Shown here piece after piece: positions 3,001 to 9,000 of a stretch of DNA of 17,601 bases. The stretch's first letter is position 1. Every line of letters starts with the position of its first letter. Source of the DNA: a virus (Duplodnaviria; Heunggongvirae; Uroviricota; Caudoviricetes); IMG/VR virus record IMGVR_UViG_2563366990_000006; one strand, written 5' to 3'. Made by a program: the position numbers.

Positions 3001-6000
3001 GAGTTGATGGTATCACTGCGGGGATCGGGATTGTCGCCGGAAAAGACAGTGAAGGCAGGCCTGTAAGTCAGGTTGCAATTTCTGCGTCGCAGTTGTTTGT
3101 CTTTGACCCGAACAACCCGGATAACACCGCCTATCCGTTTGCGGTATCAGGTGGCAAGGTTGTGATCCCGAAAGCGATGATTTATGACGCGGTGATTGAA
3201 ACACTGGTGTCGCGGAAGGTTGTGGCGGATGAGGTAAAAGCCGGGGTAAGTATCACTTCGCCAGTTATCCGGAGTGCCGTTATTCAGAACGGAAACTTTC
3301 AGGTTGATTCTCAGGGTAACCTGAATATTGGAGGCCTTTTCAGTGTTACGTCACAAGGGCAACTGACAATTCGTTACTCTAATCAGAATGTAGGACTGGT
3401 GATCCGCAATGATAAAATTGAGGTTTATGATCAGAATGGACGACTGGCTGTTCGCATAGGCAGATTACGCTGATCAGGAGGTGAGTATTGGAATACGGTT
3501 TTGCCATTTATAACAGAAATAACGTTAATGTTACGGGCGTGCTGACTCCGGTATTTTTCCTGGACAGATTTACAGCGGAGTCTGGCTCAAAGACGTACAC
3601 GAATAAACCCGACGGGAAATCATTGCAGGCTGTATGTTGTTTATTTCCCTGGAATAATGTATTTGCGGATCGGAAAGTACCGAAGATAACCATTAATGGC
3701 AATACGGTGACGTGGTCGAATCTTGAGCAGGGTATGGGATCTTATATTTATACATTCTGGGGATAAGTGTCATGTATGGTTTGAGCATTATGAAGCCGGA
3801 TGGCAGCGTATGGATAAGTCCAGGTTTTACGCCGCAGTGTCTGATCAACAAAGGCACCATACCGGCGACTGAAAAGTCTTTTTTTAAAACATCAATCCCG
3901 TCAGGCAAAAGTTGTTTTTTCTTTATCAGAACAGAGAAGAAGGCCGATGTCATGTACACGCATGAACAGATTGATGGATATCATGCACTAAGGCTTCATG
4001 TAATTGTCAGGGAAACGAACCCTGGTGTTACGACGGTTTATGCTTTCGCGAATATGGTTACTCCACCTTCTGAGTATGGTATCGCCATGTATAACCCGGA
4101 CGGTGAGATGATTTATCATGGCGAAATGATGCTGCTTGACGCGAAGTTAATACCTGTTGATATCAAATTTGAAAAGGACCTTGGATATCCATGCGCAATC
4201 ATGCCAGCACTGGTCGGGTATTATAACTGGAAAAGAACTCCTTATGATCGACCGATTTATACCACATCCACTGGTGCTACAGGAAATAAAATATATTCCT
4301 GTGAGCATTATTCCGGTGGTGCAACATGGGATATTCGAAAGCCGTATATAGATAAGGTCCTGGTTATTAATACATCAGTATATGATTAGTTGAAGCGAGT
4401 CTTTAATATTCATTTAAAATGTCTAAAAAGATGTATTATTAAAAAGTTTAGCGTGTTATCTGAATACAGGATATCTTAAATGAAGAGTATAGCAACACTG
4501 GTTGTGTGTGCAATCTCCGGGATTGCCTGTGTAAATTTATCTGCACATGCAGCAGAAGGAAACCATACAATTTCTCTGGGGTATGCGCACTTTCAGTTTC
4601 CGGGACTGAAGGATTTTGTAAAGGATGCGACTGCTCATAACAGGGAGACTTTCAGTCATTTCGTCAACAGAAACTACTTTTCTTCATTGGGCGAATATAC
4701 AGATGGTCGGGTCAGTGGATATGAAGGCAAGGATAAAAATCCACAGGGCATTAATATCAGGTATCGCTACGAGATAACGGATGATTTTGGCGTTATCACC
4801 TCTTTTACATGGACGCGTTCTCTCACTAACTCACAGACATTTATTGATGTGCAGTCAGCCGATCATACCAGGAAGATTAAGAATCCGGCAGCTTCTGCCA
4901 GAACGGATATCAGGGCGAATTACTGGAGTCTGTTAGCGGGGCCTTCATGGCGGGTTAATCAGTACATGAGTTTATATGCGATGGCAGGGATAGGCGTTGC
5001 TAAAGTTAGCGCTGACCTGAAAATTAAGGACAATATTAACAGTAGTGGCGGATTTTCTGAAAGCAACAGCACGAAAAAAACCTCCCTTGCGTGGGCTGCA
5101 GGTGCACAGTTTAACCTGAATGAGAGTGTTACACTGGATGTGGCTTACGAAGGTTCCGGCTCTGGCGACTGGCGCACGAGTGGCGTTACTGCTGGCATTG
5201 GCCTGAAATTCTGACCTGTATCCGGTAACCGTTTACTACCCGCTGTGATGGCGGGTTTTTTATTGCCCGTACAGGGCAAAAACCGTAAATTATGCGTGGG
5301 TGCCTTTCGGCTGATGGCTGGAGGGAGAACCTGAAGGCCTGATGTGGAAAGGCCCCGAGTCAACTTAACGTTAACCCGAGGCCCTAATCATCATACCTTA
5401 AGCAAGTAGAAGGTTAGTAAGCGTACAGCCTGAACCGTCTGGTCAGAATCTGACGAATTAGACAAAGTGGTATCCACCAAATAAGTAGTGGGAACCAAAG
5501 TGTCAGATATGCAGAAAAATGTGACTCCCGGCAGGCGAAAAGGCTGCCCTAATTATCCTCCCGAATTTAAACAGCAGCTCGTTGCTGCCTCCTGTGAGCC
5601 CGGGATATCCATCTCAAAACTTGCTCTTGAAAATGGCATTAACGCCAATCTGTTGTTCAAATGGCGACAACAATGGCGCGAGGGAAAGCTGCTATTACCT
5701 TCTTCAGAGAGCCCCCAGCTACTTCCTGTGACTCTCGATGCAGCTGCCGAACAGCCAGAATCGCTCGCAGAGGACCCGGAAACCCTCAGTATCAGCTGTG
5801 AGGTAACGTTCCGGCACGGGACGCTCCGCTTCAATGGCAATGTCAGCGAAAAGCTCCTGACTCTGCTGATACAGGAACTGAAGTGATGATCCCGTTACCT
5901 TCCGGGACCAAAATTTGGCTGGTTGCCGGTATCACCGATATGAGAAATGGCTTCAACGGCCTGGCTGCGAAAGTACAAACGGCGCTGAAAGACGATCCCA

Positions 6001-9000
6001 TGTCCGGCCATGTTTTCATTTTCCGGGGCCGCAGCGGCAGTCAGGTTAAACTGCTGTGGTCCACCGGTGACGGACTGTGCCTCCTGACCAAACGGCTGGA
6101 GCGTGGGCGCTTCGCCTGGCCGTCAGCCCGTGATGGCAAAGTGTTCCTTACGCAGGCGCAGCTGGCGATGCTGCTGGAAGGTATCGACTGGCGACAGCCT
6201 AAGCGGCTGCTGACCTCCCTGACCATGCTGTAAATCTCTTTATCCTGGTTGTCACAGAATAAGCCCGGTAAAATACGGGCTTATGAACGACATCTCTTCT
6301 GACGACATCTTCCTGCTGAAACAGCGCCTGGCCGAACAGGAAGCGCTGATCCACGCCCTGCAGGAAAAGCTGAGCAACCGGGAGCGCGAAATAGACCATC
6401 TGCAGGCGCAGCTGGATAAACTCCGCCGGATGAACTTCGGCAGTCGTTCCGAAAAAGTCTCCCGCCGTATCGCACAAATGGAAGCCGATCTGAACCGGCT
6501 TCAGAAAGAGAGCGATACGCTGACTGGTAGGGTGTATGACCCGGCAGTACAGCGTCCGTTGCGTCAGACCCGCACCCGTAAGCCGTTCCCTGAATCACTA
6601 CCCCGTGACGAAAAGCGACTGTTGCCTGCGGCGCCGTGCTGCCCGAACTGCGGCGGTTCACTGAGCTATCTGGGCGAGGATACCGCCGAACAGCTGGAGT
6701 TGATGCGTAGCGCCTTCCGGGTTATCCGGACGGTACGGGAAAAACATGCCTGTACTCAGTGCGATGCCATCGTGCAGGCACCTGCACCTTCGCGGCCCAT
6801 CGAGCGGGGTATCGCCGGACCGGGGCTGCTGGCCCGCGTGCTGACCTCGAAGTATGCAGAGCACACCCCGCTGTATCGCCAGTCAGAAATATACGGCCGG
6901 CAAGGTGTGGAGCTGAGGCGTTCACTGCTGTCGGGCTGGGTGGATGCATGCTGCCGGCTGCTGTCTCCGCTGGAAGAGGCGCTTCATGGCTATGTCATGA
7001 CTGACGGCAAACTCCATGCCGATGATACCCCGGTCCAGGTACTGCTGCCGGGTAATAAGAAGACGAAGAGCGGGCGGTTGTGGGCGTATGTTCGTGATGA
7101 CCGCAATGCCGGGTCAGCGTTGGCACCTGCAGTGTGGTTCGCTTACAGCCCGGACAGAAAAGGCATCCATCCGCAGACTCATCTTGCCTGCTTCAGCGGT
7201 GTGCTGCAAGCGGATGCGTACGCCGGGTTCAACGAGCTGTATCGCAATGGTGGGATAACGGAAGCTGCCTGCTGGGCTCATGCCCGCCGAAAGATCCACG
7301 ATGTGCACGTCCGCATCCCGTCAGCACTGACGGAAGAAGCCCTGGAGCAGATCGGTCAGTTGTACGCCATAGAGGCGGATATAAGGGGAATGCCGGCAGA
7401 GCAGCGGCTTGCTGAACGTCAGCGAAAAACGAAACCGCTGTTGAAATCCCTGGAAAGCTGGTTGCGTGAAAAGATGAAGACCCTGTCGCGACACTCAGAG
7501 TTGGCGAAGGCGTTCGCGTACGCACTTAACCAGTGGCCGGCACTGACGTACTATGCGAACGATGGCTGGGTGGAAATCGACAACAACATCGCTGAAAATG
7601 CCCTGCGGGCGGTCAGTCTGGGTCGTAAAAACTTCCTGTTCTTCGGCTCTGACCATGGTGGTGAGCGGGGAGCGCTACTGTACAGCCTGATCGGGACGTG
7701 CAAACTGAATGACGTGGATCCAGAAAGCTACCTTCGCCATGTGCTTGGCGTCATAGCAGACTGGCCGGTCAACCGGGTCAGCGAACTGCTTCCGTGGCGC
7801 ATAGCACTGCCAGCTGAATAACTCATCCCCGTCAATACGGCCCTCGCTGTACGCTTACGAAGGTTAGCGCCTCTCTGTAAAAGGAGTCAAGCGCTATGTC
7901 GCAAAAATCGCTTATCACCGTCACAATTTGTATGACGGTTATCTTCACTATCTGGATGTTGTACGGTTCGCTGTGTGAGTTCCGGCTGAATTTGTGGGGA
8001 GCGGAGTTTGCGGCGTTCTTACAGTGTAAGCAGTAGGAAAACCGCGACGGGGACGAAAGTCCCCGTCAACTGGTTGCTGAGGTTCAGCCGATATGGCACC
8101 CGTTTGTAGTGTATGTTTTATACAATGCAGGCTGACAGAGAGAGGTAATATTTATCAATGGTAAATAATAACCACAGAAAATGTTTTGTTTTTTCTGAGT
8201 AATACTGGTGTTATTTAGGGTAAGTTTTTGATGCGTATTGCATTCTTGTGATTTTAATTATTAATTTTTCTTAACTCATTGATTTTAATATTTTATTTGC
8301 CTTGTTATTGTGAGTAGTATCCCTGAAGACATTTGCGTTCCGAATGTCAACATATTTATAACATGATTTAACATAAGGGTACACATCATGAAAAAGGCAA
8401 GCAAGCTATTGTTGGCTTTAATGCCAGCATTAAGCCTGTCGGTATTTTCTGCTGGCGTATATGCAGCAGACGCCTCTGGAATTAATGGCACTTCATATTA
8501 TGGAGTGACTGTTGATCAGTTGAAAGGACATGAATATAAAACTCCAATTGATTTTTGGAGAGACCTCGGCTTCTCAGGAAAAGGGTATCTGGATGGAGTT
8601 GTGGTAAATGCAGACACGAGAAAACCTGAAAGTGTAAATATACAAAACACGGCAGGGAAATATTTAAAGTATTCTCTTTACGATGTTGGTAAATCTGGTT
8701 TGACGAATACAGAATTATTAGCACCGCGTAGTGAAATAGCATCTTATTACGACTATGCAAATGAGGTTGCTTATTTTGTAAACACCAAAACAAATCAAAT
8801 TCTGTTTAGTGCAGATGGTGAGGGACTTGTCACGACGGTCGGGGCTGACGGAAAAGCGTACTCAAGACACATCCCTGAAATCAGTGAATATATTTATGAG
8901 ATTAAAATAAAATCTGTAATACCAGGAGGCACTATTGATAGCACTCTTTCTGCTGCAGATGTAACAGATATTCACGCCCGTCTGTCTTCTCTGGGCACCG

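Follow-up and report, generated by a model that had tools for sequence, protein, structure and literature searches.

How does an intact toxin gene of the hok type come to stand directly behind a complete transposable element, and what has become of the toxin-antitoxin (TA) module to which it belonged? The question is raised by a DNA stretch of 17,601 nucleotides from a virus of the Caudoviricetes (IMG/VR record IMGVR_UViG_2563366990_000006; the whole stretch is called the window below), in which an insertion sequence (IS) of the IS66 family, ISEc8, lies just upstream of an open reading frame (ORF) for a Hok-like toxin of 46 amino acids (aa). The original prediction proposed that the IS had landed inside the hok transcription unit and had parted the promoter and the antisense-target leader from the toxin ORF. 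This is borne out by an uninterrupted copy of the same locus, by the boundaries of the conserved unit (5263-8101), and by the fold-back pairing of its two ends. It is very likely that ISEc8 hit a hok/sok-type module of a lambdoid prophage between a lom gene and a gene for a YadA-like adhesin, and that it thereby uncoupled both the toxin and the antitoxin from their promoters.

The element spans 5417-7858 on the plus strand (2442 bp), has the same orientation as hok, and is 99.7-99.8% identical to named ISEc8 copies over 2442 of its 2442 bp. The matching transposase is named 'IS66-like element ISEc8 family' by the Prokaryotic Genome Annotation Pipeline (PGAP). All three transposition genes, tnpA (5488-5886), tnpB (5883-6233), and tnpC (6283-7821), lie on the plus strand and are intact, and their products contain IS66-family Pfam domains (HTH_Tnp_1, TnpB_IS66, and DDE_Tnp_IS66 together with zinc-finger, leucine-zipper, and C-terminal domains). 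Terminal inverted repeats, which start with GTAAGCGTACAGC, are common to both ends, and the element is bordered by two copies of the 8-bp target-site duplication (TSD) GAAGGTTA at 5409-5416 and 7859-7866. Target duplications of this length are typical of the IS66 family. The early description of a complete IS66 element with an 8-bp duplication is confirmed by the inverted repeats, the flanking repeats, and the three intact ORFs, and every element named there lies at its given coordinates or no more than a base or two away.

When the IS and one repeat are removed, so that 5416 is joined to 7867, the resulting sequence is 100% identical over 551 nt to Escherichia coli 04-00955. The PGAP annotation of this empty site lists Ail/Lom, Hok/Gef family, and YadA-like proteins within a phage tail-fibre context. 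With the IS left aside, the window and 04-00955 are 99.945% identical over 5417 nt upstream and 100% identical over 6342 nt downstream, and the overlap of the two alignments is precisely the 8-bp repeat. The split locus is a simple transposition of ISEc8 into a pre-existing, uninterrupted unit, and because of the near-identity to 04-00955 outside the IS, the insertion appears to be recent, with nothing else changed. A search of 5,426 complete E. coli genomes did not return the junction between ISEc8 and hok, and none of the 24 contigs read in which the identical Hok is encoded contains it. One contig that starts 442 bp upstream of hok was considered as a break caused by an IS and was rejected, as its copy of the locus is uninterrupted.

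The toxin ORF itself (7896-8036, plus strand) is intact and scores 31.9 bits against the Pfam family HOK_GEF (PF01848), above the cut-off of 22 (E = 9.8e-8), which confirms its assignment to the Hok family. At the empty site of 04-00955, the annotated Hok/Gef protein has exactly this sequence. The position first given for the ORF relative to the target duplication stands, with a measured distance of 29 bp from the right repeat in place of 30 bp. In total, 36 relatives of the 46-aa Hok were found, and the subfamily is present in E. coli, Salmonella, and Shigella. Fifteen of the 46 residues are invariant in the subfamily, and in an alignment of 22 Hok sequences, C27-E28 and the motif E37-F-A-A-F-L42 are nearly or fully invariant.

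How far the unit reaches beyond the ORF is given by its relatives in IMG/VR, where 80 prophage loci (56 distinct sequences of 67-99.8% identity) were collected. Among these 56 loci, homology starts at 5263 and stops exactly at 8101; past this point they diverge completely. In plasmid-borne relatives, the match extends from 5278 to 8101 at the farthest, and in most of them no lom gene is annotated under it. Upstream of this block lies the Ail/Lom gene (4480-5214, Ail_Lom Pfam match), which is followed by its intrinsic terminator at 5238-5256 (plus strand), an 8-bp stem and then TTTTTATT, so that lom is separated from the hok unit.

The leader of the unit was compared with the Rfam model RF01794, which, despite its name sok, describes the sense leader between the 5' end of the mRNA and the hok AUG, as its matches to R1, hokB, and hokC (87-118 bits) show. 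The uninterrupted locus gives a full-length match to this model (36.4 bits, E = 2e-6), and model position 1 aligns to the base equivalent to window position 5298. At gathering thresholds, Rfam returned no match in the whole window, because the leader is split and divergent and its score lies below the gathering score of 59; permissive searches of the left flank and of the empty site were needed. The reconstructed locus resembles hok/sok-type loci, as the full-model match below threshold and the similarity of the leader to hokB, hokC, and R1 suggest. The segment 5290-5416 belongs to the hok unit because of the RF01794 match, the homology over 5263-8101, and the terminator at 5238-5256; with lom terminated there and a conserved block beginning at 5263, it is not part of an unrelated transcript.

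The conserved block opens with the predicted, unmapped hok promoter (5263-5291, plus strand), in which a -35 box TTGCCC (5263-5268) and a -10 box TAAATT (5286-5291) are separated by a 17-nt spacer. The -10 box ends 6 nt before the putative +1 at 5298. Promoters in this locus were placed by a relaxed scan combined with homology; this one has 8 of 12 consensus matches, and the homology of the hok loci begins there. A strict sigma-70 scan gave no promoter in 5150-5600 nor around the right junction.

The two ends of the unit are joined by pairing. The 5' end of the hok mRNA (5298-5314, plus strand), which is tac-like and starts with GGGUGC as in hokB and hokC, can pair either with an fbi-like 3' element at 8084-8101 (plus strand), the last base of which is also the last base of hok homology, or locally with 5344-5356. 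The fold-back is formed by two helices, GGGUGCC at 5298-5304 with GGCACCC at 8095-8101 (7 bp) and UCGGCUGA at 5307-5314 with UCAGCCGA at 8084-8091 (8 bp). The complementarity that had been noticed between 5298-5313 and 8085-8101 is thus real and slightly longer, and the distance of about 360 nt that had been estimated between the IS-less ends is right in essence, the measured value being 354 nt. This IS-less RNA (5298-5416 joined to 7867-8101) has a minimum free energy of -146.3 kcal/mol (z = -5.9) with its ends paired. When 1170 tiles of the window on both strands were compared, the 3' site was the best partner of the 5' 20-mer besides its own reverse complement, and 2 of 2000 shuffles of the 3' untranslated region (UTR) paired equally well. 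Across the 43 distinct homologues used for the RNAalifold consensus and the fold-back counts, the pairing is kept in 42, and the changes on the 3' side are exclusively GC to GU or UA to UG, all of them pairing-compatible. The fold-back has support at the level of the family as well, because the ends of R1 (GGCGCUU/AAGCGCC) and of hokB (GGGUGCC...GAGA with UCUC...GGCACCC) each match within their own locus.

The alternative partner of the 5' end is a ucb-like box at 5344-5356 (plus strand), which would form the hairpin of the activated, 3'-trimmed mRNA. RNAalifold reports 12 pairs between 5298-5311 and 5344-5356, which are paired in 41-43 of the 43 homologues; variation is mostly absent from these positions, so the result speaks for consistency and is not proof of covariation. 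The consensus also contains a helix of GAGGC (5378-5382) with GCCUC (7869-7873), and the insertion site lies inside this helix. By analogy, the tac/ucb hairpin and the GAGGC/GCCUC helix would correspond to the activated, 3'-trimmed form of the R1 hok mRNA, a structure reportedly modelled by the Gerdes laboratory. The 3' UTR contains a further conserved hairpin (8046-8067, plus strand), two pairs of which show two-sided compensatory changes among the homologues (AU/GC in one and CG/AU/GC in the other). Read on the minus strand (8045-8068), the same hairpin also scores as terminator-like, the stem being followed by CGGTTTTCCT. After 8101, the hok mRNA has no canonical terminator that the scan could find.

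Two of the IMG/VR relatives deviate at their 5' ends. In the most divergent one (L058, 67% identity), GGGUGCC is replaced by GGACACC at the 5' end (equivalent to 5298-5312) with the 3' GGCACCC unchanged; its fold-back is weaker (-11.8 compared with about -26 kcal/mol), and this may be a decaying copy. In another (L018), the equivalent of 5250-5330, including the hok promoter and the tac-like 5' end, is replaced by unrelated sequence. This locus keeps the Sok target, the hok ORF, and the fbi element and thus presents a second, different way of decapitating the locus.

The antisense side of the module would be split as well. The predicted Sok body (5345-5404, ends ±4 nt, minus strand) was placed by alignment with the annotated sokB and sokC of K-12, and it comprises a 5' tail and a long GC-rich hairpin followed by UUUCC, with a predicted fold of -32.6 kcal/mol (z = -5.5). 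The predicted sok promoter, likewise unmapped, lies on the other side of the IS (7861-7890, minus strand), with a -35 box TTGACT (7890 to 7885), an 18-nt spacer, and a -10 box TAACCT (7866 to 7861). In the relaxed scan it is the best promoter-like site in 7700-7960, with 8 of 12 matches. Among homologues, AGGTTA, the complement of TAACCT, does not vary, nor does the CAA of the -35 box; the -35 box of relatives reads TTGCTC or TTGCCT at 17-nt spacing. A -10-like hexamer directly adjoins the conserved GCCUCU box in hokB (TAAGAT), in R1 (TATCCT), and here (TAACCT); the first two we take to be the sok -10 boxes of their loci. A second candidate for the -10 box, TATGAT (5395 to 5390), was rejected, as it falls in the most variable part of the leader and a start there removes the Sok 5' tail.

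From this placement, ISEc8 would sit inside the predicted sok promoter, and the -35 box and spacer would be lost to the Sok body. On the left side, the repeat at 5409-5416 holds a copy of the -10 box (TAACCT, minus strand, 5416 to 5411) that stays with the Sok body, and the IS sequence preceding it contains no acceptable -35 box. On the right side, the repeat at 7859-7866 supplies the -10 box of a complete predicted sok promoter, whose transcription would now enter the IS from its right end in antisense to tnpC. The target duplication thus appears to regenerate the sok -10 box; this point, the predicted severing of the sok promoter from its gene, and the lack of a mok frame (see below) are absent from the earlier interpretation.

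Among homologues, no part of the leader varies more than the region of the Sok 5' tail. The stretch with which the tail would pair (5385-5408) is hypervariable among loci that are otherwise 90-99% identical, and up to 8 places matching the hok locus occur per genome. As far as can be judged from the sequences, this hypervariability is consistent with locus-specific recognition or with selection against cross-talk among co-resident copies.

What the insertion would do to the module follows from where it lies, namely at +119/+120 of the approximately 354-nt hok mRNA and 29 nt before the hok AUG. The hok promoter, the tac-like 5' end, the ucb-like box, the Sok target, and the Sok-coding body would remain on the left of the IS, and the sok promoter, the hok ribosome-binding site (RBS), the toxin ORF, and the fbi-like 3' element on the right. 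In one event, the toxin ORF would be cut from the hok promoter and from its activating leader, and Sok RNA from the sok promoter. Transcription from the hok promoter would now enter tnpABC, and that from the sok promoter would enter the IS in antisense orientation to tnpC. Because hok and sok overlap in convergent orientation, one insertion in the leader is enough to disconnect the two, and for this reason the insertion would have been tolerated rather than lethal.

Whether a transcript that still reaches hok could be translated depends on the RBS. In known loci such as R1, an overlapping mok frame is present; in the reconstructed locus, all three frames are stopped between 5399 and 7867, and no later start precedes the hok AUG. 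Most of the 56 homologues likewise contain no overlapping mok-type frame. A mok frame with a non-canonical start was also considered and rejected, as the frames that start at -103 or -130 occur scattered among some relatives and lack conservation. The hok RBS is AAGGAG (7881-7886), 9 nt before the AUG, and it is part of a local hairpin (AGCGC...GCGCU, 7866-7895, plus strand, -10.3 kcal/mol) that lies entirely to the right of the IS. In the predicted folds of this hairpin, CUCU (7873-7876) pairs with the GGAG of the RBS. The probability that the RBS is unpaired amounts to 0.19 in the full-length native RNA, 0.37 after 3' trimming, 0.19 in the 3'-trimmed RNA with the Sok target masked, and 0.19 in every construct with IS sequence upstream of hok. 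We infer that the upstream GAGGC opens the RBS by capturing GCCUC and that either Sok or the IS would prevent this capture. A read-through transcript that reaches hok without the upstream GAGGC box would keep its RBS locked in the local hairpin. Since the RBS would stay locked, the toxin is most likely silent, and the folding models make its silencing probable.

Several points weigh against this account. Homology and weak 8/12 consensus matches, which fall below the threshold of the strict scanner, are the basis for the promoters, the +1 sites, and the Sok ends, and the RF01794 match of 36.4 bits does not reach the gathering score. Changes in the fold-back within the subfamily are all one-sided and of the wobble type, with no double compensatory ones. 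The differences in RBS accessibility are modest and purely thermodynamic. Finally, no terminator was found between tnpC and hok, and the IS is oriented as hok is; read-through transcription of hok is therefore possible.

The last of these points leads to one of the two strongest alternatives, in which hok is not silenced at all. In this scenario, hok would be the last gene of a long tnpA-tnpB-tnpC transcript started at the hok promoter or at an IS promoter, and it would be translated at a low level from AAGGAG outside the control of Sok. The shared orientation of IS and hok, the undamaged ORF and 3' UTR, the strong RBS of hok itself, which makes a mok frame unneeded, and the stretch between the tnpC stop (7821) and the hok AUG (7896), in which no terminator-like site is found, would all allow this. 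Neither the strict nor the relaxed scan found a promoter-like site facing outward at the right end of ISEc8. However, the RBS is paired in all folded read-through constructs (unpaired probability 0.19), the local hairpin (-10.3 kcal/mol) is intact, and the tnpC stop, 75 nt upstream of the AUG, is probably too far away for terminating ribosomes to open it. Furthermore, the predicted intact sok promoter would yield antisense RNA across the junction. The toxicity of Hok is established, and an uncontrolled Hok would be counter-selected. We regard an unsilenced hok as unlikely, and the same applies to any residual hok expression.

A comparably doubtful alternative interprets the split as a rewiring, in which the TA promoters modulate the expression of the transposase and keep an intact, latent toxin in check. 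The orphan sok promoter would fire constitutively into ISEc8, and the resulting antisense RNA would target both the 3' end of tnpC and any read-through from the IS to hok; tnpABC would in turn receive sense transcription from the hok promoter. As a separate part of this reading, control of the mok-less Hok subfamily might lie with a three-way RNA switch in place of mok coupling, with Sok masking the GAGGC box that otherwise frees the RBS.

Still less probable is that the hok locus was already a non-functional relic before ISEc8 arrived, so that the insertion had no functional consequence and the mok-less subfamily perhaps forms no working TA pair. The impossibility of a mok-type overlapping frame, with three frames closed between 5399 and 7867, and the Rfam leader match below threshold would fit a relic, and decayed relatives do exist (L018 with its promoter and 5' end replaced and L058 with its mismatched 5' end). 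Against this, the whole unit including its non-coding parts is conserved across 43 distinct variants with sharp boundaries at 5263 and 8101, the 3' hairpin shows compensatory changes, the fold-back changes are all pairing-compatible, and 15 of 46 Hok residues are invariant. Moreover, the related prophage locus hokW-sokW is experimentally functional (PMC8621323). The reading of 5290-5416 as the 3' UTR of lom or an independent small RNA, with a coincidental complementarity to 8084-8101, can draw on the empty strict promoter scan of 5150-5600 and is effectively refuted by the terminator that ends lom at 5238-5256, by the travelling of the segment with hok in plasmid loci without lom annotated under the match, by its match to the hok-leader covariance model, and by a complementarity that is the best in the window besides the segment's own reverse complement and is conserved.

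The uncoupling of a prophage hok/sok-type module by ISEc8 can be placed beside several known cases. The original prediction pointed to chromosomal hok loci of E. coli K-12 that are inactivated by nearby IS elements, and the MG1655 annotation agrees: hokC and hokE are each followed by IS186 at a distance of 19 bp, and IS150 precedes hokA by 32 bp. In view of these loci, the present split adds a new example to a known phenomenon, for which hokA::IS150 of E. coli K-12 is the nearest precedent. In both cases, the IS is found in the leader (32 bp before the hokA AUG for IS150 and, for ISEc8 with its repeat, 29-37 bp before hok), the hok promoter and 5' end lie on one side and an intact toxin ORF on the other, and sok (here a predicted gene) is disrupted. 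At hokA, sokA and mokA are annotated as pseudogenes, mokA being truncated by IS150 and a sokA remnant lying on its far side. The two cases differ in the IS family (IS3 for IS150, IS66 for ISEc8) and in the site of insertion. IS150 lies inside the Sok hairpin or target region, and part of the hokA leader appears to be missing, whereas the ISEc8 case is a clean, simple transposition into the predicted sok promoter with a TSD that would rebuild the -10 box. In addition, hokA is a locus of the core chromosome, whereas the present hok is prophage-borne.

The cases of hokC (gef)::IS186 and hokE::IS186 are similar in that the IS is close to, and not inside, the toxin ORF and that the loci are disabled. 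There, IS186 lies 19 bp downstream and removes fbi while the promoter, leader, and sok are intact; it is reported to disrupt the fbi fold-back element (PMC3562002). ISEc8, in contrast, inserted upstream, and fbi is still attached to the ORF.

With the hok/sok (parB) module of plasmid R1, the locus shares a Hok/Gef toxin, complementary ends (GGCGCUU/AAGCGCC in R1, GGGUGCC/GGCACCC here), an alternative 5' hairpin, a predicted antisense -10 box that adjoins the GCCUCU box, and a leader match to RF01794, which for the present locus lies below the gathering score. It differs from R1 in the length of Hok (46 aa instead of 52), in having no mok frame, in its shorter leader (AUG at +149), in its lower RF01794 score (36 compared with 87 bits), and in being carried by a prophage rather than a plasmid.

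A further hok/sok module on a lambdoid prophage of pathogenic E. coli is hokW-sokW of Sakai prophage 5, which is an experimentally functional type I TA system (PMC8621323). The possibility that this is the same locus was rejected, since HokW has 51 aa and the present toxin 46 aa (PMC8621323), and no IS disruption has been described for hokW. [quoted passage not shown]

Downstream, the hok unit is followed at 8388-9593 (plus strand) by a gene for a 401-aa YadA-like trimeric autotransporter with a YadA head repeat and a membrane anchor, which lies in the lom-proximal accessory region of the prophage. Its product presumably resembles the Eib immunoglobulin-binding proteins borne by prophages. In another E. 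coli genome (GCA_033688435.1), an IS21-type insertion (approximately 4745-8037; rve transposase and IstB) is found inside the YadA-like gene at a site equivalent to approximately 8626-8640 of the window, with hok intact. The accessory region seems to collect IS elements. Farther downstream, from about 12901 on the plus strand to the last position of the window (17601) and past it, runs the start of a gene for an LPD38 domain-containing 'polyvalent' protein of about 2795 aa, by correspondence with the annotation of 04-00955.

Taken on its own terms, the case leaves the current understanding of type I toxin-antitoxin systems unchanged. It would add another natural case in which a mobile element neutralises a hok-type locus without damage to the toxin ORF. 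For annotation, it means that the toxin ORF is best treated as part of a disrupted locus and that the flanks of the IS are not to be treated as unrelated sequence. The points that are the case's own are minor ones, namely a duplication that would rebuild the sok -10 box and a mok-less subfamily with a leader that is missed by Rfam at threshold. The prophage-borne 46-aa Hok subfamily has the full hok-type RNA architecture, which the Rfam sok model misses at its gathering threshold, and this mok-less subfamily could merit a small mechanistic study.

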